DNA from: a virus
Taxonomy: Duplodnaviria; Heunggongvirae; Uroviricota; Caudoviricetes
Reading direction: 5' to 3' (one strand)
Length of the DNA: 39,503 nucleotides
Virus record (IMG/VR): IMGVR_UViG_2718218309_000001
This document shows, in pieces, positions 2,275 through 39,503 of this stretch. Both the position numbers and the translations under genes were made by a program. Below the pieces are notes generated by a model. It made no database searches, had not been told where the DNA came from, and saw only the letters and a list, made by a program, of their open reading frames with translations. Positions within the stretch are counted from its first letter, which is position 1, and the number at the start of each line of letters is the position of its first letter.

Positions 2275-3546
2275 TTAGGCTACCAGAGCATTTGATCTTT
2301 GAGCTTGAACGTAATCACTCCACCATTGCATCAAACTCTGTCGCTCTATCAGATATTCTGCACGATTGTATGCTGCGATAATTTCATCTTTTTTCGAGTG
2401 GGCAAGCGCTGCCTCAAGAACTTCAGCTCTGAATTTACCAGACTCCTCTGCCGCTGTTCGTGCAATAGAACGCATACCGTGAGCTACAAGCTCGCCTCCG
2501 AACCCCATTCGGATGATAGCTGCGTTGGCTGTTTGTTCATGCATATGATTAAGAGGCGCTTTTATGCTGGGGAAAACCCATTCTCTATGCCCACTTATTG
2601 ATTTCATTAATTCAAGGATGCGCAAAGCTTCTTTACTCAAAGGAACTTTGTGAAGCTTTTTCATTTTCATGAAATCAGCAGGAATGTTCCAAATGCTGTT
2701 GGTTGTATCAATATCAGACCACCTTGCGCGAACGGCTTCACCCGGACGAACCCATGTCAACAATTGCCATTCAATTAGCATACGTGTTTCCAACCGGATT
2801 GACGCATTCGTCAAAGATTCCATAAACCTTGGCAATTCGCTTGGGGGAAGGGCAGGCATATTTTGCTTTTTTGGTTTACTGAATCTTTGACCAAGGTTGT
2901 CAGCCGGGTTGAACTCAATAAGTTCTTCAGTAGCTGCCCACCGGAAGATTTCATTCAGACGTGAAATGATACGGCGTAGAGTTTCCAATACGCCTCGTTG
3001 CTCAATAGGATCAAGGTGTTGTTTTAAGAGCTTAGGTCGGATCTCATTGATAGGGACATTACCCAGACCGGGAAAGACATTTCTCTCTAAGCTGCGCCAG
3101 ATGTCTGCTGCATGGTCTTGTGAGATACCTGATGTCTTTACCTTCTCATCTAACCATTTCCGCGCTACGGCTTGGAGAGTGTGCTCAGTAGCACTCTTTA
3201 ATGCCTTCGCCTTATCGTTGTTATGGATTTGGGGATCAACACCATTTGCCAGAAAGGAGAGATATTCATCACGTAAGGCTCTGGCTCTTGCAAGGGTAAG
3301 GTGAGGATATGTCCCAAGGCTCATTTTGGTTCTTTTCTTGCTCACTGGTACTGCATACCTGAAATACCAATTTTTCTTGCCTCCTTTCGCCAAAGGAGCG
3401 ATTCGTAGAATCAGACCATCACCGTCAAACAAGTTGATTTCTTTATCGGCTGGCTTGGTGCTTTTGATTTCAGTGTCAGTGAGCTTCTTAGCGATTTTTG
3501 CCATTTTGGGACCCTCGGTTTTTGGACCCTTCTTAGTGGGTCCCAT
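2275..3546 (-). CDS. int: P4-family tyrosine integrase (CP4-57 IntA-like); true start probably the internal Met (MAKIAKKLTDTEIK, near 3504)
   Basis: N-terminal TDTEIKSTKP...DGDGL...WYFRY motif block typical of P4-type integrases; C-terminal catalytic region with R...H..R..Y-type residues (HGMRS, AHS...YNRAEY); adjacent to att copy. Confidence 0.9.
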   Translation of the reverse strand: MGPTKKGPKTEGPKMAKIAKKLTDTEIKSTKPADKEINLFDGDGLILRIAPLAKGGKKNWYFRYAVPVSKKRTKMSLGTYPHLTLARARALRDEYLSFLANGVDPQIHNNDKAKALKSATEHTLQAVARKWLDEKVKTSGISQDHAADIWRSLERNVFPGLGNVPINEIRPKLLKQHLDPIEQRGVLETLRRIISRLNEIFRWAATEELIEFNPADNLGQRFSKPKKQNMPALPPSELPRFMESLTNASIRLETRMLIEWQLLTWVRPGEAVRARWSDIDTTNSIWNIPADFMKMKKLHKVPLSKEALRILELMKSISGHREWVFPSIKAPLNHMHEQTANAAIIRMGFGGELVAHGMRSIARTAAEESGKFRAEVLEAALAHSKKDEIIAAYNRAEYLIERQSLMQWWSDYVQAQRSNALVA

Positions 3547-3827: not shown

Positions 3828-5021
3828 TCACTTCTTGTCTTCGATAGAACCGTATTCAAGAAGGTTGTCCATACACTTCTCTAACCTATAGAAATCTGTC
3901 AAAGGATAGAGATTGACAATGTTGTCATCAAAACTTTGCATACCTGATAAACGTTCTTTCCTTCTTAAGAATCTTGAGGCAGACCTAACACCATCATCCT
4001 CACTTGGTTCACAGGAATAATCTAGAGTTTTTAGTACCTGCCATGAAACGGGGGGAGTAAGCTTGAACATTTTTACTAGCTTAGGACAGAAATCTTTTGT
4101 TATGGTTTGCTGATATGTAACTTTAGGTGGAAGAACAACGTTAATAGATTTATCACCATGGTTTGTTTTAATCATTCTTGTCGATCTGTATGCAATTCCG
4201 ACAATGTTTGATTTATTTCTACGACTAATCCATTGCATTAATAAATTTGGGATTATATATTCCTGAGTGAAAGATGTGCTGCCGTTAATCTTTGCAAAAC
4301 TACAAGCGTAAATTAGTGGCATTAAACAAATGTAAGACATCTTTGTGATGTATGACATTTTGTCATTATCAATCTTACCATAGAAACGTGAGTAGAGGAT
4401 TTCCGAAGTGAAATCTAATATTTTGGAATTTTCTTCACTGGATATAAAAGAAGATATATATAACTTATCAAAATCAGGTTTATCCATTTCAAGCCAACAT
4501 ACATATAGGGATGAGCCTAAATATAAACAGGGTAGACCTGCAACCGAGTATCTTTGGGCATTTACCAAGTGCCTTTTAGAGAATGGTATATGAAAGATTT
4601 CATTTCTATTTTTTACTGCTGTATCAGATTTTCTAACCCTGAATAAAGGTCTTGAAGAATTGCAAATATTCTCTAAGGGGATTGATATTTTCTGGATGTA
4701 GTTAGCTGTGAATCGATCAGAAAATGTTCTGTCGAAAGTATCATATGAGGACTTGATATCACCTGATAAAAAATATTCCAAAGAGCTTACAACGCCAAAG
4801 TATATTCTTGTTATTCTATCAAGTTTAGAACTCAATCTACGAGATAATTCATTGTCATTATCTTCTATGTAGTCATTTAAAGTATTAAAGTAAATTTCAC
4901 ATTTATTTTTAAAATCATTAATAATGTCGGTCTTAACAGTGAAAGGGAGTTTTAAATCTCCCGTCTTTATAAGGCTTTCAAATAAAAAATTAAAATCATC
5001 ATGTATATTTTCGGTTTCCAT
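3828..5021 (-). CDS. RES-domain-like protein (397 aa), candidate NAD+-targeting toxin/effector
   Basis: Motif block PLFRVR...QRYSVAGLPCLYLGSSLYVCWLE (aa about 125-179) matches the RES signature (Arg ... G.P.LYL.SS ... E) known from RES-Xre toxins; very AT-rich; second gene of an operon downstream of int. Confidence 0.55.
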   Translation of the reverse strand: METENIHDDFNFLFESLIKTGDLKLPFTVKTDIINDFKNKCEIYFNTLNDYIEDNDNELSRRLSSKLDRITRIYFGVVSSLEYFLSGDIKSSYDTFDRTFSDRFTANYIQKISIPLENICNSSRPLFRVRKSDTAVKNRNEIFHIPFSKRHLVNAQRYSVAGLPCLYLGSSLYVCWLEMDKPDFDKLYISSFISSEENSKILDFTSEILYSRFYGKIDNDKMSYITKMSYICLMPLIYACSFAKINGSTSFTQEYIIPNLLMQWISRRNKSNIVGIAYRSTRMIKTNHGDKSINVVLPPKVTYQQTITKDFCPKLVKMFKLTPPVSWQVLKTLDYSCEPSEDDGVRSASRFLRRKERLSGMQSFDDNIVNLYPLTDFYRLEKCMDNLLEYGSIEDKK

Positions 5022-5075: not shown

Positions 5076-6203
5076 TCATTCCAAATGATCTGCCGCCGCT
5101 TTGCCGCCAAGGATTTTCATATAAGGAGGCTTAGCATAAACCTCCTTGGTCTGCTGGAAAGTGGTTTTGGAGAATCTTCTTTCTTCTGATTGTAAATATT
5201 TTAGCAGACGTTGATATTTGTTTTCTAATATTTGACTATTCCCAGCCAGATCGTAAATATCGCAGGTTATGTTATAAAGCCAATAAACTACGGCTTTGAT
5301 TTCAGGCTCTGAGAAATAGGTTGTGTTAAATACATATTCATTATTATGATTGTAAATGTAGGAGTGTTTCCTTTGTATAGTGTTAACCTTAAGTAGCTTC
5401 ATAAGGTTGATAATTTTAAGGTCAATAGAAATTAAAGAAATTATCTCTGACTTCAAATCACCCTTTTTGATACCAATAATTTCTTTATCAAGTTCATTCC
5501 AGGCATTTATGATTTTTTGCGTGAATTTTGGGGAAGGGCTATAAATTGCACCAGTATTTTGTGAAGATTGAAATAAATTATTATAAAGCTTATGAGGAAA
5601 TACAATTTTCACTTCGTAAGTATTTACTTTTTCACTTGATTCTATATAAGCATGGCTAGCCACTTCAGCAGCCACATGCCTTGTTCGATCAGTCTGCGTG
5701 GGGATATATTCAAGAACCAAAGTAGGGAATGAACTAATCGTTTCGATAAATAGTTTTAAATGAGAGTAATAAGCGTCTGCATTGTTTTTAACTTTAGCTG
5801 ATTGTATCTGTGATTCAGTTTGAATGGTTCTATGAATATTATTTACTATTGAAGCCAGTGGCACTGATGAAGCTAATAATAGCAACGGAAGTTTACTAAT
5901 ATTAAGAAAATTTGCAAACCCGTCGGTTGTCAGTTGTAAACTATGATCTCTCCAAACCCAGCAACCGAATAAAATAAAATAGTAAAATGGTAATAAGATA
6001 GAAGCTATAAACAAAGGTTGTTTGAATAAATTATTGTCATTTAACTCAAACCACCCGTAAAAATAAAACAGTCCTATTGTTATAAATAATGAGGTTATTG
6101 CCACCGTTAAGAACATTACCTCAAAACCATAATATATTGTAAAAGTATTTGCAACTATGGATAGTAAGAGCAAAAAAGTTAAAGTGATAATTTTATTTTT
6201 CAT
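5076..6203 (-). CDS. Hypothetical membrane protein (375 aa): about 4 N-terminal TM helices plus about 280-aa soluble C-terminal domain
   Basis: Hydrophobic segments in the first 90 aa; start ATG (6203-6201) overlaps the int stop codon (TGA 6202-6200), i.e. ATGA translational coupling with int; AT-rich. Confidence 0.6.
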   Translation of the reverse strand: MKNKIITLTFLLLLSIVANTFTIYYGFEVMFLTVAITSLFITIGLFYFYGWFELNDNNLFKQPLFIASILLPFYYFILFGCWVWRDHSLQLTTDGFANFLNISKLPLLLLASSVPLASIVNNIHRTIQTESQIQSAKVKNNADAYYSHLKLFIETISSFPTLVLEYIPTQTDRTRHVAAEVASHAYIESSEKVNTYEVKIVFPHKLYNNLFQSSQNTGAIYSPSPKFTQKIINAWNELDKEIIGIKKGDLKSEIISLISIDLKIINLMKLLKVNTIQRKHSYIYNHNNEYVFNTTYFSEPEIKAVVYWLYNITCDIYDLAGNSQILENKYQRLLKYLQSEERRFSKTTFQQTKEVYAKPPYMKILGGKAAADHLE

Positions 6204-7219
6204 AAGTTAATCATATTCAACGGGTTTTTGGTAACTGCATCTTCTAAATGATCTGGGGAGAAATGTGCATAGATCATTGTCATCTTAATATCGGCATGCC
6301 CAAGAATTTCTTTAAGAACAAGTATATTACCGCCATTCATCATGAAATAGCTTGCGAAGGTATGCCGCAGCACGTGGGTACATTGGCCCTCTGGCAAGTC
6401 GATACCAGCTCGTTTCACTGCGCGCTCAAAAGCTTTTCTGCATGGCGTGAATAGTTTCCCTCTGTTTTTGGGGAGTTCATCATACAGCTCCTGAGATATC
6501 GGTATGGTACGGTTTTTCTTGCCTTTAGTTTTGGTATAGGTGATCCGGTATTTAGTTAACTGATGGCCTTGAAGGTTTTCTGCTTCACTCCATCGCGCGC
6601 CGGTAGCCAGGCATATTTTTGCAATCATCAATAGGCTGGAGCTATGAGAATCTGCGCAAGCATCAAGCAGGCGTTTAATTTCTTCCGTGGTCAGGAACGC
6701 CAGCTCACCTTCTGCGATTTTAAATGTTGGCAAACCGGCGAGTGGATTGGGTGCTGACCAATGGCCCAACTTTTTCAGTGTGCCAAACACGGATGATAGG
6801 TTGCGTTGTTCAAGGTTTACCGTGCGAGGCTTAACTGGCGACATAAGCACGCCATCTTCATTTCGCACCTCACCTTTTAGCCGTGCTTCGCGGTATTTCG
6901 TAAAGTCGCCAGCGGTTAACTCTGAGGCAACAGGATCACCCAGGCCGTTACAAATAATGTTGAGTTTTGCCATCAGGCGTTTGGGGTCAGCAAGTGTCTG
7001 CCCGTAGAGTGAATGCCATTGCTCAATCACTTCTGACAAACGCCGCCGATCTTCTTTCTCACCCAACCACGGTTTTTTGTTTACTTCGTCCATGGTGTGA
7101 TTTTCGAATGCTATGGCCTCACCTTTCGTCGCAAATTGTTTGCGCACACGCTTGCCGTCGCGCCCGTTAGGGTAGCACTCACATAACCATTTACCGTTCG
7201 GCTGTTTTCTGATGGTCAT
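6200..7219 (-). CDS. int: P2/186-type tyrosine integrase
   Basis: 339-aa protein with N-terminal MTIRKQPNGKWLCE... and C-terminal catalytic residues (R...HVLRHTFAS...YAHF), as in P2 Int; located next to the repressor gene as in P2/186. Confidence 0.9.
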   Translation of the reverse strand: MTIRKQPNGKWLCECYPNGRDGKRVRKQFATKGEAIAFENHTMDEVNKKPWLGEKEDRRRLSEVIEQWHSLYGQTLADPKRLMAKLNIICNGLGDPVASELTAGDFTKYREARLKGEVRNEDGVLMSPVKPRTVNLEQRNLSSVFGTLKKLGHWSAPNPLAGLPTFKIAEGELAFLTTEEIKRLLDACADSHSSSLLMIAKICLATGARWSEAENLQGHQLTKYRITYTKTKGKKNRTIPISQELYDELPKNRGKLFTPCRKAFERAVKRAGIDLPEGQCTHVLRHTFASYFMMNGGNILVLKEILGHADIKMTMIYAHFSPDHLEDAVTKNPLNMINL

Positions 7220-15185: not shown

Positions 15186-15884
15186 ATGGTTATGTTAGTG
15201 GATGACTGTCCACGATGTGGATCACAAAAAATAGCGTTTGATGTTAATGGGCTGAATTGCACTAGGGTTTACAATGCATTGGGCGGGGGTAAAACATACG
15301 AGTACGAGGTCTATTGTGTTTGCCGAGAGTGTCATAAAACGACAATGTTTCTTTGCAGACCTTTAACGAAAAATAAAACTTTAGATGGCTATAATTGGGA
15401 AAGTGGAATATTCGGCTTAAAGGAAGTTGCAGAGGTTGTTAGGCCTATATCACCGGCAGACTTAGCAGTAGAGGAGCCACCAGAGTTCTTACCTGAGCAT
15501 ATCAATAGTACATATGAGGAAGGGGCGAAATGTTTGGCTATAGGTTGTTATAATGCAGCAGCAACCATGTTTAGGCTTTGCCTTGATTATGCCACAAAAG
15601 GACTTCTTCCTGATGGGGAGCAAGGGCCTGCGCAAAAAATAAGGAGAAGCCTAGGGTTAAGAATGGAGTGGTTATTTGATAATCATCTACTGCCTGAAGC
15701 TTTAAGGGAACTAGCTGAATGCGTTAAAGATGACGGAAATGATGGAGCGCATGAAGGTATTTTGGATAAAGCTGCTGCTGAGGATCTTGAAGATTTTACC
15801 TATCTTTTTTTAGAACGGCTTTACACTGAACCTCAACGCCTTATCGAAGCCAAGACAAGGCGTGAACAAAGAAGAAACAAATAA
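15186..15884 (+). CDS. Hypothetical Zn-ribbon protein (232 aa): N-terminal CPRCG...CRECH plus C-terminal helical domain; cargo between cos and Q
   Basis: Cx2C-N30-Cx2C at the N-terminus; GGAGGAG RBS; AT-rich; stop is only 8 bp from the Q stop. Confidence 0.65.
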   Translation: MVMLVDDCPRCGSQKIAFDVNGLNCTRVYNALGGGKTYEYEVYCVCRECHKTTMFLCRPLTKNKTLDGYNWESGIFGLKEVAEVVRPISPADLAVEEPPEFLPEHINSTYEEGAKCLAIGCYNAAATMFRLCLDYATKGLLPDGEQGPAQKIRRSLGLRMEWLFDNHLLPEALRELAECVKDDGNDGAHEGILDKAAAEDLEDFTYLFLERLYTEPQRLIEAKTRREQRRNK

Positions 15885-15892
15885 GTTCGGAA

Positions 15893-16930
15893 TTATTCTT
15901 CTGAAAGAATATAGGGCGTAAATTTAATCACTTCTTCGCCCAGCCAGTCGTTCAGCTCTTGTAGCCTTTTTTGCAAGGGCGTTAATTCATTACGTACAAA
16001 TACGCGACTGGCCTTCTCCACATCCCCAAACCCCCCGACATTATTAGGCATTATCCCCATCATTTGTGGCGGCACACGATGCGCCGCCATCATGTCGTCC
16101 CGGCTCACGTTCTTGATATTCAGGAACTCATCCTTCGCCGCCACTTCTGACAACGGGATAATCTGAAGCCCGTCCTTTTTACCGTTAGGCGAGTACATAA
16201 ACAGGTTACGGAAGTTACCAGGACCTTTGGCGCTTTTCATCGCATTGCGGAGGTTGTTCACATCCTCCTGGTTCTGTGCTGCATCGGTCATGTACATGAT
16301 GAAGCCTGCATGACTGCCGTTAATGTAATACTTGCGGCGGAACAGCGTGGCGGACTCGTTGAGCAGAGCTGACGGAATGGCAGAAAGATAACCAGGCAGG
16401 CCGTAGATCTCCTGGTTGATGTCCGGTTCCATCAGATGAAAAATGTTGCCTTTCGTGAACTGATACGGCTGCGTAGTCATGCCGTATTGCACAAACCAGT
16501 AGGTATCAAGGTCTAACCCGCGTCGGGTGTATTTTGCCAGTGCAGGCTCAAGGGCGATAACTTCACCGAAGCGGTTCGTGCGTTTCTCCAGGTAGGCGTT
16601 ACCAAAAACCAGATAGTCCTGTACAAAACGCGAAAAAGCCTGCTGGCTGAGCAGCGGGTGAGGGATGTAGGTGCTGGTCAGAATGTTGCACTTCACTGCA
16701 ATCGGTGAGCTGTGATGCACGGCGGCGCGGAAGGTTCGCGCCAGTCCGTCGAAACTCACAGGCGGCTCGTACCAACGATCCATCTGTACGCATTCCACAT
16801 AGTCCAGCAGTTCGCGGCGGTCCAGAACAGGAACGGGATCACCGAAGCTGAATGCTTCGGCTGAAGTCTGGCTTTTATGCTGGATCTGTTTCGTCGACGC
16901 AGCGCGGTTCTTCTTACTCTTTCCCATCAA
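15893..16930 (-). CDS. Q: Portal protein (P2 gpQ)
   Basis: 345-aa protein, size and position (leftward, next to cos, before P) match P2 Q. Confidence 0.95.
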   Translation of the reverse strand: MMGKSKKNRAASTKQIQHKSQTSAEAFSFGDPVPVLDRRELLDYVECVQMDRWYEPPVSFDGLARTFRAAVHHSSPIAVKCNILTSTYIPHPLLSQQAFSRFVQDYLVFGNAYLEKRTNRFGEVIALEPALAKYTRRGLDLDTYWFVQYGMTTQPYQFTKGNIFHLMEPDINQEIYGLPGYLSAIPSALLNESATLFRRKYYINGSHAGFIMYMTDAAQNQEDVNNLRNAMKSAKGPGNFRNLFMYSPNGKKDGLQIIPLSEVAAKDEFLNIKNVSRDDMMAAHRVPPQMMGIMPNNVGGFGDVEKASRVFVRNELTPLQKRLQELNDWLGEEVIKFTPYILSEE

Positions 16931-35928: not shown

Positions 35929-36410
35929 TGATGGTGCTGGGATTGTACGTGTTTATGCTGCGCACCGTGCCGTATCAGGAGCTGCAGTATCAACGCAGCT
36001 GGCGACATGCGGCAAACAGCCGGGTAAACCGACGTCCGTCCACGCAGTTTCTGGGACCGGACAACGACATGCTGACGCTTTCCGGTGTTCTTATGCCGGA
36101 GATAACAGGTGGCAGGCTGTCGTTGCTGGCACTGGAGCAGATGGCAGAACAGGGGAAAGCATGGCCCCTGATTGAAGGCAGCGGCACGATTTATGGCATG
36201 TATGTGATTGAGGGACTGAATCAGACTAAAACGGAGTTTTTCCGCGACGGTATGCCGCGCCGGATTGAGTTCACCCTGTCGCTCAAACGGGTGGATGAAT
36301 CCCTGTCCGATATGTTCGGTGATCTCAGTGCGCAACTGAATAATCTGCAGGAAACGGCAACGTCTGCCTTAAGCGATATCAGTAAAACGGTGGGAGGGCT
36401 GCTGTCGTGA
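35925..36410 (+). CDS. U: Tail protein U (P2 gpU)
   Basis: 161-aa protein, start overlaps T stop. Confidence 0.9.
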   Translation: MMMVLGLYVFMLRTVPYQELQYQRSWRHAANSRVNRRPSTQFLGPDNDMLTLSGVLMPEITGGRLSLLALEQMAEQGKAWPLIEGSGTIYGMYVIEGLNQTKTEFFRDGMPRRIEFTLSLKRVDESLSDMFGDLSAQLNNLQETATSALSDISKTVGGLLS

Positions 36411-37507
36411 ATTTCAGCTCTGAACTGCTTAACAAAAGCAACAAAACTCCGGCATTCAGCATCAGTATTGAGGGCAGGGATATCACCACTGTGCTGGATA
36501 ACCGCCTGATGAGTCTGACTCTGACGGACAATCGGGGCTTTGAAGCAGACCAGCTTGATCTGGAGCTGGACGATGCCGACGGGAAAATCGTGCTGCCGCG
36601 CCGTGGTGCGGTCATTACGCTGGCGCTGGGCTGGAAGGGGCAGCCGCTTTTCCCGAAAGGGGCATTCACGGTGGACGAGATTGAACACACTGGCGCACCG
36701 GGCCGCCTGACTATCCGGGCGCGAAGTGCTGATTTTCGGGAAACGCTGAATACCCGCCGTGAAAAATCGTGGCACAAGACCACCATTGGGGAAGTGGTGA
36801 AGGAGATAGCCGCGCGGCACAAGCTGAAGATGGTACTGGGTAAAGACCTGTCGGATAAGCTCGTGGAGCATATAGACCAGACTAATGAGAGTGACGGTAG
36901 TTTTCTGATGCGGCTGGCGCGCCAGTACGGTGCTATTGCGTCGGTGAAAAATGGCAATCTGTTATTCATCCGGCAGGGACAGGGCAAAAGTGCCAGCGGT
37001 AAACCACTGCCGGTGATCACTATCACACGTAAGGACGGCGACAGTCACCGCTTTACCCTGGCAGATCGCGGAGCCTATACGGGCATAATTGCCAGCTGGT
37101 TGCATACCCGCGAACCCGCGAAGAAAGAAAGCACCACGGTGAAGCGTAAGCGCAGGACTAAGAAGCAGAAGAAAGAGCTGGAAGCGAAGCAGGGCGATTA
37201 CCTGGTGGGTACGGATGAAAACGTGCTGGTACTTAATCGCACTTATGCCAACCGGAGCAACGCTGAACGGGCAGCGAAAATGCAGTGGGAACGCCTGCAA
37301 CGCGGCGTTGCGTCATTCTCGCTACAACTGGCGGAAGGGCGGGCAGATCTCTACACGGAAATGCCAGTGAAAGTCAGTGGCTTTAAACAGCCGATAGATG
37401 ATGCGGAATGGACCATTACGACTCTGACACATACCGTCAGCCCGGATAATGGTTTTACGACCAGTCTTGAGCTTGAAGTGAAGGTTGATGATCTCGAAAT
37501 GGAATGA
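36407..37507 (+). CDS. D: Tail protein D (P2 gpD)
   Basis: 366-aa protein (GTG start overlapping U stop), last structural gene before ogr as in P2. Confidence 0.9.
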   Translation: MNFSSELLNKSNKTPAFSISIEGRDITTVLDNRLMSLTLTDNRGFEADQLDLELDDADGKIVLPRRGAVITLALGWKGQPLFPKGAFTVDEIEHTGAPGRLTIRARSADFRETLNTRREKSWHKTTIGEVVKEIAARHKLKMVLGKDLSDKLVEHIDQTNESDGSFLMRLARQYGAIASVKNGNLLFIRQGQGKSASGKPLPVITITRKDGDSHRFTLADRGAYTGIIASWLHTREPAKKESTTVKRKRRTKKQKKELEAKQGDYLVGTDENVLVLNRTYANRSNAERAAKMQWERLQRGVASFSLQLAEGRADLYTEMPVKVSGFKQPIDDAEWTITTLTHTVSPDNGFTTSLELEVKVDDLEME

Positions 37508-37597
37508 TTCTTCACAATGGAGAACTTTTAAGTTTGAAAAATGGAATAATGCGATATCATTATTGTGAATTTAGCAAAAATGGGGAGAACTCGAAAA

Positions 37598-37816
37598 ATG
37601 ATGATTTGCCCACTGTGTGGAAGTGCCGCCCATACTCGCAGCAGTTTTCAGGTATCTTCATTGACCAAAGAGCGTTACAACCAGTGCCAGAACATTAACT
37701 GCAGCCATACTTTTGTTACCCATGAAACTTTTGTTCGTTCGATTGCAACGCCAAAAGAGTCAAATCCGGTTCAGCCGCATCCTCATAAATTTAAACAGGT
37801 GGGTTTGCCGATTTAA
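37598..37816 (+). CDS. ogr: Late gene transcriptional activator Ogr (zinc-finger)
   Basis: MMICPLCGSAAHTRSS...KERYNQCQNINCSHTF parallels P2 Ogr (CPLC...KERYHQCQNVNCSATF); 72 aa from ATG 37598. Confidence 0.9.
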   Translation: MMICPLCGSAAHTRSSFQVSSLTKERYNQCQNINCSHTFVTHETFVRSIATPKESNPVQPHPHKFKQVGLPI

Positions 37817-37880
37817 ATGGCGACATAACTACATGATTTAAAACTATACTTTTCTATAAGTTGAGGTTAAATTAACAATG

Positions 37881-38057
37881 CCTGACGTTAGCGGGGATTT
37901 ATCCCCACTCCGTAGATATGTAGTTTGTCGCTTTGCGACTGCGGACCGATTACCTGATTGCCATGTAATCGGACGCCGACTTGTTAAGCTTTCTGGGCTA
38001 ACTGGTTGTTATTTTTTATTTAGTTAGGGCCATGCGCTTGCGCTAAGAGACGTCAGG
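37881..38057 (+). ncRNA. Candidate structured non-coding RNA (possible RT template, retron msr/msd-like) bounded by inverted repeats CCTGACGT / ACGTCAGG
   Basis: 8-bp inverted repeat at 37881-37888 and 38050-38057 encloses about 160 nt with several stable hairpins (GGGGAT-TT-ATCCCC at 37893-37906; GTCGC-TTT-GCGAC at 37927-37939; CCGATTAC-N11-GTAATCGG at 37946-37972); no ORF; directly upstream of the RT operon. Strand and ends not established. Confidence 0.3.
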
Positions 38058-38077
38058 TATCTATGGAGGAACAAGTT

Positions 38078-38251
38078 ATGGATACAAACGAACTTGGCTT
38101 AGTTAAGGCGCGTGTTGAACTGATCACCGCTATGCTCAAATGCGCAACCGCGTTTGTTGGCTTAGTTGGTGCGGTTTACGCCGTTCTTAACATGGCCTTC
38201 AACTACAACAATTTAACTCATGACAATAGAAGTTCAAAGGTGGGAAGATAA
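38078..38251 (+). CDS. Small single-TM protein (57 aa from ATG 38078; 62 aa from ATG 38063)
   Basis: Strong RBS GGAGGA (38065-38070) 7 nt before ATG 38078; hydrophobic helix CATAFVGLVGAVYAVLNMAF; 3' end overlaps the RT start by about 30 nt. Confidence 0.45.
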   Translation: MDTNELGLVKARVELITAMLKCATAFVGLVGAVYAVLNMAFNYNNLTHDNRSSKVGR

Positions 38252-38993
38252 ATTTGAGATTAAGCCCGGGGTTTGGGTTTATGTCCCAAGCGTTGAGGCA
38301 CGTAAAGTCGGAGGGAAGATACTTCAGGCTGTCAGAAACAAGTGGATTCCGCCACTCTATTTTTACCATCTAAGAACTGGTGGGCATCTTAAAGCTGCCA
38401 GATTACACTTAAAAAGTGATTTTTTTGCCGTTGTTGATATTAAACAATTTTTTCAGTCAACGAGCCGTAGTCGTATCACCCGTGATCTAAAGAGCTACTT
38501 CACCTATTCTCAAGCGCGGGAAATCTCAACATTTTCAACTGTAAGAAACTTGTCCCATAGTCCACATAAGCATGTCCTCCCTTTTGGTTTTGTTCAATCT
38601 CCAATACTTGCAACCCTCTGCTTAGATAAAAGTTATTTTGGTAGCTTACTACGCCGATTGAACAAACATCATGATCTCAAGCTAAGTGTGTTTATGGATG
38701 ATGTGATCATCTCGTCAAACGATTTGGCCCAATTACAAGCGGCTTACGACGAAGCACTAGTGGCAATGCGTAAATCTGGTTATCAAGCCAACATGAGTAA
38801 AACTCAGGCACCATCGTCAAAGATTAGCGTGTTTAATTTAACTTTGAGTAAGGGAGTTATGAAAGTCACATCTCAGAAAATGAGTGACTTCCTGATTGAT
38901 TTCTATTCAAGCAATTATGAGCCGCACAGAATAGGGGTCAAAAACTACGTCGAAGCTGTTAATCCAGGGCAAGCGAAACTCTTTAAGTTGTAA
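38220..38993 (+). CDS. Compact reverse transcriptase (257 aa; fingers/palm only), defence-associated RT candidate
   Basis: RT motifs in order: motif 2 FFAVVDIKQFF (catalytic Asp), motif 4 LPFGFVQSPILATL, motif 5 VFMDDVII (FMDD at 38691-38702), motif 6 YQANMSKT; no obvious thumb, maturase or retron VTG region; AT-rich; between ogr and attR. Confidence 0.8.
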   Translation: MTIEVQRWEDKFEIKPGVWVYVPSVEARKVGGKILQAVRNKWIPPLYFYHLRTGGHLKAARLHLKSDFFAVVDIKQFFQSTSRSRITRDLKSYFTYSQAREISTFSTVRNLSHSPHKHVLPFGFVQSPILATLCLDKSYFGSLLRRLNKHHDLKLSVFMDDVIISSNDLAQLQAAYDEALVAMRKSGYQANMSKTQAPSSKISVFNLTLSKGVMKVTSQKMSDFLIDFYSSNYEPHRIGVKNYVEAVNPGQAKLFKL

Positions 38994-39062
38994 TTGCGAT
39001 CGCATGTAGTAGCAACTGGGCTTGACTGAATGTCTGCCGCCATTTTGCCGCCACTACTAAAG

Positions 39063-39090
39063 AAAAAAGGGCTACGCTTTCACGTAACCC
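39063..39090 (-). terminator. ssrA rho-independent terminator
   Basis: On the minus strand GGGGUUACG-loop-CGUAGCCC followed by U6, just downstream of the ssrA 3' end. Confidence 0.5.
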
Positions 39091-39101
39091 CTTGATTTAT
39101 T

Positions 39102-39146
39102 TGGTGGAGCTGGCGGGAGTTGAACCCGCGTCCGAAATTCCTACAT
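39102..39146. repeat. 45-bp att core within the ssrA 3' end (direct repeat partner of 3670-3714)
   Basis: Identical 45-mer; this copy is part of the intact tmRNA gene. Confidence 0.9.
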
Positions 39147-39464
39147 CCTCGGTACTACATGCTTAGTCAGTCTTTACATTCGCTTGCCAGCTGCGGACGG
39201 ACACGCCACTAACAAACTAGCCTGATTAAGTTTTAACGCTTCAACCCCAGGCAGGGCTTCCACGCGATCTCTTTTGGGTTTGACCTCTCTTGATCCCCGT
39301 CCTAAGAGCGGAGGCTAGGGAGAGAGGGCTCTAAGCAGGTTATTAAGCTGCTAAAGCGTAGTTTTCGTCGTTTGCGACTATTTTTTGCGGCTTTTTACGA
39401 GGCCAACCGCCCCTCGGCATGCACCTTGGGTTTCGCAAATCCCGTCGAATCCAGAATCAGCCCC
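39102..39464 (-). ncRNA. ssrA: tmRNA (transfer-messenger RNA, SsrA), 363 nt
   Basis: Reverse complement reads GGGGCTGATTCTGGATTCGACGGG...GCAAACGACGAAAACTACGCTTTAGCAGCTTAA (tag peptide ANDENYALAA)...GGTTCAACTCCCGCCAGCTCCACCA, matching the E. coli tmRNA sequence. Confidence 0.97.
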
Positions 39465-39503
39465 AATGTGTAAAGGTAAGTATACCAGATTTATGAGCGC
39501 CAT

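Follow-up and report, generated by a model that had tools for sequence, protein, structure and literature searches.

A compact retron-like module of a P2-like prophage with a conserved small-peptide gene that overlaps the reverse transcriptase gene

Type VI retrons are encoded in the order non-coding RNA (ncRNA), small protein (SP), HTH protein and reverse transcriptase (RT), and their small protein is a toxin (10.1101/2025.10.22.683967; 10.64898/2026.04.27.721009). In Retron-Vpa2 the SP toxin is embedded in a 'hybrid RNA' and is translationally repressed, the repression being relieved when msDNA accumulates (10.1101/2025.10.22.683967). Retron-Sen3 produces its SP constitutively and relies on the HTH protein to neutralise it; the basal stem sequesters the ribosome-binding site of the SP, whose coding sequence is subject to selection for RNA structure (10.64898/2026.04.27.721009). 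Of Type VI retrons, 78% have HTH, which was essential for viability in both systems studied. A hallmark of retron RTs is the VTG triplet (Mestre 2020). The Type VI group used for comparison comprised Retron-Vpa2, Retron-Eco12 and Retron-Sen3 and belongs to clade 3 of Mestre et al. 2020.

The locus investigated here lies in a P2/186-like prophage, which makes up the window (the whole stretch of 39,503 nucleotides that was analysed) and codes for a CI repressor, CII, Dam methylase, gpA, tail genes, gpD and ogr. The prophage is integrated at the 3′ end of ssrA, and the RT module is its last cargo before attR (features are collected in the table). In the matching E. coli genome, ssrA is followed by smpB and ratA. 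When the stretch 37800-39100 was searched, other P2-like phages matched only 39029-39100, indicating that the stretch from ogr to the attachment site is cargo. It consists of a structured non-coding region, a small ORF and an RT of 257 aa; the small ORF had been predicted at 38063-38251, between a structured leader and the RT, and is indeed present there.

Among 5,426 complete E. coli genomes, 27 carry the whole module (37800-39100) at 99.5-100% identity, as do 13 Klebsiella phage records (Kp4845-2 and others); this indicates a recent spread of one prophage lineage between genera. It follows ogr in several P2-like prophages (the window, L002, L008 and L098), stands beside a primase and a RelB/ParE pair in an island (L097) and occupies a plain chromosomal site without phage genes in another locus (L096). 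These varied genomic contexts indicate that the module is a self-contained mobile unit of about 1.15 kb. A role as holin or in lysis was rejected, since the module is also found outside prophages. The AT-rich stretch that precedes the ncRNA has been conserved in enterobacterial copies from unrelated contexts and probably marks the 5′ boundary of the module. It might also hold a promoter, as a -10-like TAAATT was seen at 37868-37873 in the alignment of seven loci; a scan for consensus promoters upstream of a2 gave no match on the plus strand, and the assignment is therefore tentative.

Two other parts of the prophage were noted. Two adjoining ORFs of 397 and 375 aa (3828-5021 and 5076-6203, both on the minus strand), without Pfam or PADLOC match, are flanked by the prophage integrase (6200-7219) on one side and by a second integrase (2275-3546) on the other; they might represent additional cargo or a second, tandem island. 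A 232-aa ORF (15186-15884, plus strand) showed a weak PADLOC match to PD-T7-4 (1.1e-6) and adjoins the portal gene (15893-16930, minus strand), which is the position of the published P2 anti-phage hotspot; given this position and match, the prophage may carry two defence cargos.

Table. Coordinates of the features of the module and of its neighbours in the window
Feature	Position	Strand	Evidence or remark
gpD	36407-37507		
ogr	37565-37816		
AT-rich region upstream of ncRNA	37850-37877	+	alignment of 7 loci
a2, 5′ arm of closing stem, ATGCCTGACGT	37878-37888	+	pairs with 38050-38060
P1 hairpin, msr-type stem-loop, GGGGAUUUAUCCCC	37893-37906	+	fold prediction; compensatory changes in relatives
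Anti-Shine-Dalgarno element, pyrimidine-rich, CUCCGUAGAUA	37908-37918	+	11 bp, including one G-U, with 38058-38068
Small conserved hairpin GUCGC-UUU-GCGAC	37927-37939	+	corresponds to family GUCAC-NNN-GUGAY hairpin
Variable multi-hairpin central region	37940-38033	+	presumed msd template; longer here than in most relatives
Nearly invariant GCGC-UU-GCGC hairpin, then UAAGAG	38034-38049	+	100% paired; directly 5′ of a1
a1, 3′ arm of closing stem, ACGUCAGGUAU	38050-38060	+	pairs with a2
Peptide ribosome-binding region	38058-38069	+	UAUCUAUGGAG (38058-38068) pairs with anti-Shine-Dalgarno element; GGAGG at 38065-38069
Hairpin CAAGUU/AACUUG enclosing start codon 38078-38080	38072-38096	+	predicted fold
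Small-peptide gene, 57 aa, WP_000380485.1	38078-38251	+	ORF call, RefSeq/PGAP, homologue alignment, dN/dS
Compact retron-like RT, 257 aa, WP_000151541.1	38220-38993	+	Pfam RVT_1, 2e-21
Catalytic FMDD	38691-38702	+	within RT
ssrA/tmRNA, complete gene	39102-39464	-	295.8 bits, Rfam scan

In the RT, residues D73, D160 and D161 are invariant in the family alignment. A PDB sequence search with the single RT yielded nothing useful, but a search with a profile of 21 family members succeeded, its top 13 matches all being retron RTs; Ec86 ranked first (6e-12), followed by Eco8, Kva2, Ec78, Ec83 and Ec67, and group II and other RTs came later. The profile covered residues 61-295 of the 320 residues of the Ec86 RT, the family RT being about 60 residues shorter. 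Retron models also ranked first in PADLOC and NCBIfam, but far below family level: the window RT scored 63 bits on RT_VI and 49.5 bits on St85, for which the cut-off is 235. Five further family RTs reached 43-78 bits on RT_VI, about equal to their scores on RT_I-B, RT_II-A or RT_IX. As control, a genuine Vpa2-type Type VI locus with small protein, HTH and RT was recovered via the published Vpa2 small-protein sequence. The RT of this locus reached 353 bits on RT_VI and exceeded 100 bits with many of the other retron models, and the HTH matched HTH_VI. Family RTs thus scored lower on retron models than the control RT did on the models of other retron types. A direct profile comparison of the family RT with the Vpa2-type RT gave a probability of 94.8%, with 25% identity over the core.

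The retron VTG triplet is absent from the family and aligns to V204-F205-N206, of which F205 and N206 are invariant. The NAXXH region reads GGH-x2-AAxxH, with A59 and H63 invariant, so that the H is kept and the N lost in an alignment that is ambiguous there. Seven family accessions, including the old RefSeq entry WP_000151541, are missing from the published Type IV/V/VI RT tree. A HMMER scan of 1.84 billion representative proteins yielded 158 clusters (50% identity) at E<=1e-30 and 519 at E<=1e-3, nearly all of 245-270 aa. Scan and scores together indicate a compact and coherent RT family that stands far from the classified retron RTs, although retron RTs are closer to it than any other class of RT. 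The DRT and UG classes were rejected for this RT, as they gave weak matches only (UG33 33 bits, Drt3a 17.6 bits). A Vpa2-type Type VI locus of V. parahaemolyticus (Vibrio; L083, 3490-3745) showed stop codons near the 5′ end of the RT, with small protein and HTH intact; the interrupted RT may be a pseudogene or the result of a sequencing error.

Conservation of the small ORF was investigated in 80 loci coding for RT relatives of 33-81% identity, which came from Gamma-, Beta- and Alphaproteobacteria, with a few from other lineages; via IMG/VR and peptide matches, more closely related copies from enterobacteria and viruses were added. The original prediction had proposed such a check on homologous RT loci. 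A small ORF with the peptide signature, directly upstream of the RT and overlapping its start, was detected by profile search in about 64 of 81 loci, a count that is partly circular because the profile was built from the same loci. The signature is a hydrophobic helix of about 30 residues that ends in (L)LNMAFNY or KVVNY; in the peptide alignment M1 and Y43 are invariant and N42 is nearly so. In seven enterobacterial loci, compared over 47 codons outside the RT overlap, the annotated frame had a dN/dS of 0.2-0.45, while the two other frames gave values of about 1. Since purifying selection was confined to the annotated frame and the peptide was conserved in the same position before the RT, a chance ORF, which had been left open at first, is excluded. 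The small ORF is a genuine conserved gene that is exclusively linked to the RT. When a database was searched with the peptide profile, 76 clusters were returned, all of them unnamed or labelled 'hypothetical' and none with a Pfam domain, and the peptide itself had no match in Pfam, PADLOC or NCBIfam.

Of the predicted length of 57-62 aa, only the shorter form stood. The longer form (38063-38251, plus strand, 62 aa) starts at an upstream ATG (38063) that is missing in close relatives, which have CTACGG instead of CTATGG, indicating that 38078 is the real start; the RefSeq/PGAP entry, labelled hypothetical protein, likewise has 57 aa. The Shine-Dalgarno sequence GGAGG, located 8 nt before this ATG, agrees with the near-consensus ribosome-binding site that had been proposed, and a strong Shine-Dalgarno sequence (-6 kcal/mol or better) precedes the peptide in 34 of 50 loci. 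The overlap with the RT ORF, put at about 30 nt before, is 32 nt.

To survey the gene neighbourhood of the 81 loci, all ORFs that measured 60 aa or more and lay no further than 2.2 kb from the RT were clustered. No conserved third gene was found besides peptide and RT among the clustered neighbours, the remaining clusters being antisense shadows of these two. An HTH gene is likewise absent; the peptide ORF directly overlaps the RT start. The alphaproteobacterial branch (L056-L079) keeps both the RT and the peptide, the latter with a KVVNY/KVVSY motif. Six Rhizobium loci have in common a 239-aa ORF on the minus strand just downstream of the RT.

Peptide and RT differed strongly in their translation signals. 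In 50 loci the Shine-Dalgarno duplex energy had a median of -6.4 kcal/mol at the peptide start and of 0.1 at the RT start, the latter being no better than at random internal positions. The peptide stop codon lies 4-166 nt (median 35) beyond the first RT start codon, and the two genes overlap in every locus. As the RT start has no Shine-Dalgarno sequence of its own and lies within this overlap, the RT is most likely translated by ribosomes coming from the peptide, in line with the coupling that had been suggested. These features would also be expected of a mere leader, an ORF translated only to unfold the RNA and bring ribosomes to the start of the RT, with an irrelevant product. Such a leader should not show an amino acid sequence conserved across bacterial classes, an invariant Y43 and a dN/dS below 0.5 in one frame only, and we regard this explanation, which the original prediction had also considered, as very improbable.

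The leader followed a common plan in about 55 loci: a 5′ arm of 7-12 nt, (A)UAGG(C), a hairpin, a pyrimidine-rich element and a GUCAC-NNN-GUGAY hairpin are followed by a variable middle, an almost invariant GCGC-N3-GCGC hairpin, UAGG and the 3′ arm, and 5-25 nt further on by a strong Shine-Dalgarno sequence and the peptide AUG. In the window, the fold of 37878-38060 is closed by a stem of 12 bp and has a minimum free energy of -67.7 kcal/mol (z = -3.3). The UAGC that follows a2 (37889-37892; UUAGC at 37888-37892) corresponds to the conserved UAG(G/C) motif. In Ec86, a2 is followed by UUAGC with the priming G, and the priming G of the present leader is expected at this motif. The motif also served as the anchor by which the a2:a1 stem was told from the helix between the anti-Shine-Dalgarno (anti-SD) element and the Shine-Dalgarno (SD) region. 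The equivalent of P1 in relatives is an AUAGGC...GCCUAU hairpin with compensatory changes. The central region would act as msd template, and under the retron model reverse transcription would start at the GCGC-UU-GCGC hairpin and the UAAGAG next to it.

A covariance model with a seed of 37 leader sequences found the ncRNA in 56 of 79 sources, 19 of them outside the seed, always on the coding strand and just upstream of the peptide. It gave no match at Vpa2-type loci or at most alphaproteobacterial loci. In an alignment of 56 loci fitted to the model, the a2:a1 stem showed changes on both sides in six of seven pairs and 96.9% paired cells, against about 30-40% when the partners were slid by 1-3 columns; a sequence-only MAFFT alignment gave the same arm pairs. 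An Rfam scan of 37400-39503 detected the tmRNA only and assigned the leader to no known family. To judge from its a2:a1 stem and the conserved G after a2, the leader is a retron msr-msd-type RNA.

This architecture bears on a type I toxin-antitoxin explanation, which the original prediction had offered as an alternative and in which a hydrophobic toxin would be repressed by an antisense or trans RNA from the structured region. The peptide does resemble type I toxins in size and hydrophobicity, but the structured RNA is on the same strand as the ORF and contiguous with it, has the a2:a1 architecture of a retron and always occurs with an RT. There was no sign of a convergent transcript, promoter-like matches on the minus strand being no commoner than in shuffled sequence. 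A type I system is thus barely conceivable.

The anti-SD helix covers four of the five Shine-Dalgarno bases as well as the non-conserved upstream AUG. Across loci its two partners change in step, as seen in the pairs CUCAUCAA/UUGAUGAG, CUUAUCAA/UUGAUAAG, CUUUACUC/GAGUAAAG, CUCCAUUC/GAAUGGAG and UCUCCUUCU/AGAAGGAGA. With windows set by position only, the pairing energy was -16.2 kcal/mol for a locus's own anti-SD:SD pair and -13.1 kcal/mol for cross-locus pairs (0 of 5000 permutations). Of the anti-SD:SD cells in the model alignment 67.6% were paired; shuffles reached 54.6% and slid controls 41-54%. The covariation score was 0.409 against 0.24 in shuffled alignments (0 of 500), and all eight pairs changed on both sides; the covariance model used for this test did not include the anti-SD:SD helix. 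RNAalifold also picked this helix unaided from six enterobacterial copies. No anti-SD element was found at the equivalent position in the alphaproteobacterial branch (L056-L079).

The anti-SD:SD helix topologically crosses a2:a1. Since the ribosome-binding region shares 3 nt with a1, the two helices compete in the window copy, where enforcing either of them gave -73.4 kcal/mol. Across loci the a2:a1 conformer was usually favoured (median ddG +4.8 kcal/mol, with 17 of 50 loci within 3 kcal/mol, in a constrained-fold calculation that is noisy). This thermodynamic preference for a2:a1 makes an RNA switch between the two helices no more than tentative; they may alternate or form a strained pseudoknot. 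The hairpin predicted around the start codon is invariant among close relatives, so that covariation neither supports nor refutes it.

Selection at the RNA level was also apparent within the peptide gene. When 38078-38219 (peptide) and 38280-38990 (RT) were compared in the same genome pairs, synonymous divergence was 0.14-0.54 in the peptide codons and 0.5 to more than 2 in the RT, i.e. 3-4 times lower in the peptide. This indicates an added RNA-level constraint on the peptide coding sequence and suggests that RNA structure is present there. Together with the covarying anti-SD:SD helix, the low divergence points to strong control at the level of translation or RNA, which speaks against an explanation by retron toxin-antitoxin logic. 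According to the latter, peptide and RT would be made together constitutively, RT-msDNA would neutralise the peptide, phage damage to or modification of the msDNA would free it, and the anti-SD element would only tune the level. Such a scheme would benefit from the fixed co-production that coupling provides and would account for the absence of a separate antitoxin gene; the small protein of Retron-Sen3 is constitutive and controlled after translation, and most characterised retrons operate in this way. The neutraliser of Sen3 is, however, the HTH protein, which is absent here. All in all, neutralisation by RT-msDNA appears unlikely, while retaining some plausibility.

AlphaFold2, run with 42 homologues, predicted one continuous helix for residues 3-52 of the peptide, with a pLDDT of 90-96 over residues 11-40. 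The window peptide contains an uncharged 20-mer, CATAFVGLVGAVYAVLNMAF, with charged residues on both sides, and this segment is compatible with one membrane span. The proposal of a single hydrophobic transmembrane helix with charged flanks is therefore borne out for the window copy but does not extend to the whole family. Among 50 family peptides, which measure about 45-60 aa, 39 reached a Kyte-Doolittle value of at least 1.6 over 19 residues, and 38 of these 39 segments hold 1-3 charged residues, a single one having none. What the family has in common is thus a long helix of hydrophobic or amphipathic character, which need not be a classical transmembrane anchor. A PDB sequence search with the peptide gave nothing useful. 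With hhalign, the peptide family showed no similarity to the Vpa2 and Sen3 small proteins (probability about 0.1%), in a test that is weak because these two are themselves unrelated in sequence.

The composition of the helix also has to be weighed against a further explanation, in which the peptide is non-toxic and acts as a structural partner of the short RT (for instance by anchoring it in the membrane, by serving as a dimerisation helix or by replacing the N- and C-terminal RT regions that are missing), the output of the module being cDNA. The RT, shorter by about 60 residues than that of Ec86, the strict co-occurrence and coupling of both genes and the invariant N-Y motif, which could be a protein-protein contact, would all fit such a partner. 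On the other hand, a hydrophobic single helix resembles known small toxins, and every characterised retron type has an effector, for which nothing else in the locus could serve. A purely structural role therefore seems distinctly unlikely.

The best explanation appears to be a minimal HTH-less retron-like module with the peptide as its effector, in which the ncRNA gates translation of the peptide and the coupled translation of the RT; we consider the chances for and against this reading to be about equal. The Type VI precedent, in which a small protein in the same position is toxic, speaks by analogy for an effector, an idea that the original prediction had raised. The reading is further favoured by the conservation of the peptide and its N-Y motif, the lack of any other conserved neighbour, the occurrence of the module in different contexts, the ranking of retron RTs as best matches, the invariant catalytic aspartates, the covarying a2:a1 and anti-SD:SD helices and the low synonymous divergence of the peptide codons. 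Several points count against it. Coupling implies that the RT is made only when the peptide is translated, which is a poor fit with a potent toxin that is kept fully silent, and the antitoxin-like HTH, essential in both Type VI systems studied, is absent. The missing sequence homology to the Vpa2 and Sen3 small proteins, the preference for the a2:a1 conformer, the failure to find an anti-SD element in the alphaproteobacterial branch and the lack of a confidently identified promoter likewise weigh against it. The module is probably a compact, unclassified phage-defence module of a P2-like prophage, defence being a role that we infer, as we do cDNA synthesis, toxicity of the peptide, its membrane target and the trigger.

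If the peptide is the effector, the module might work as follows. A single transcript would comprise the msr-msd-like RNA and the cistrons of peptide and RT. The anti-SD element, just 3′ of the first msr hairpin, could sequester the Shine-Dalgarno sequence of the peptide. For priming a retron RT requires the a2:a1 stem, which would either have to compete with this pairing or be joined to it in a strained pseudoknot. With the RT lacking a ribosome-binding site of its own and being coupled to the peptide, the RNA fold would gate both proteins. When phage infection altered the RNA fold, or the synthesis or stability of the cDNA, more peptide would be made, one possible route being reverse transcription into the anti-SD region or a hybrid over it, as proposed for Retron-Vpa2. 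The hydrophobic helix would then enter the membrane or oligomerise, resulting in cell arrest (abortive infection). It is possible, but on present evidence doubtful, that the module represents an unclassified minimal retron lineage in which a bistable choice between a2:a1 and anti-SD:SD links competence for reverse transcription to translation of toxin and RT, so that the cDNA or its synthesis would be the sole abortive-infection switch and no protein antitoxin would be involved.

Should the peptide prove to be an effector, this would be the smallest retron-type defence module so far, with two overlapping genes in about 1.15 kb, and a Type VI-style toxin cistron within a retron RNA could then work without HTH. 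The module is overlooked by current annotation, as it stays below the cut-offs of PADLOC and NCBIfam and its genes are named only 'RT domain-containing protein' and 'hypothetical protein'. A retron-like RT of about 255 aa with a defined ncRNA is of interest for compact genome-editing tools, and the covarying pair of anti-SD helix and priming stem offers a testable model of how reverse transcription may be wired to translation.

Among the known systems, Type VI retrons share with the locus the order of ncRNA, small helical hydrophobic protein and RT on one transcript, the sequestration of the ribosome-binding site of the small protein by the ncRNA (here through the covarying anti-SD:SD helix) and an extra RNA-level constraint on the small-protein coding sequence. 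The small proteins are also alike in length (about 45-60 aa here, 55 aa in Vpa2), in their C-terminal hydrophobic core and in being predicted helices. The locus differs from Type VI in that no Cro/C1-type HTH gene (cluster 2_1) is located between small protein and RT, the RT has about 255 instead of about 315 aa and scores 43-78 instead of 353 bits on RT_VI, and VTG is replaced by an invariant VFN. Furthermore, the ncRNA covariance model has no match at Vpa2-type loci, and the peptides have no detectable sequence homology to the Vpa2 or Sen3 small proteins. Judged by the RT_VI score, the absence from the published tree, the absence of HTH and the peptide comparison, the locus is, as far as its sequence tells, not a member of Type VI.

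With Retron-Eco1 (Ec86) the locus shares an a2:a1 inverted repeat that closes an msr-msd-like RNA, UAG(C/G) after a2 and a prophage-borne module, and retron RTs are the nearest homologues of its RT. Unlike in Ec86, the presumed msd consists of several short hairpins instead of one long hairpin, the cistron after a1 is the peptide and not the RT, and the RT has no VTG and is far shorter. Type IV Retron-Eco6/Ec48 resembles the locus in combining a membrane-type effector, putative here, with a retron RT of the same broad clade as Type VI. The Ec48 effector is, however, a separate and much larger protein with two transmembrane segments, encoded downstream of the RT, whereas the peptide of about 50 aa described here is encoded upstream of the RT and overlaps it. 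Finally, type I toxins and phage holin-like peptides are similar to the present peptide in size, in their single hydrophobic helix and in their charged flanks, but the peptide described here comes without antisense RNA or lysis cassette and is an obligate companion of an RT and a retron-like RNA.
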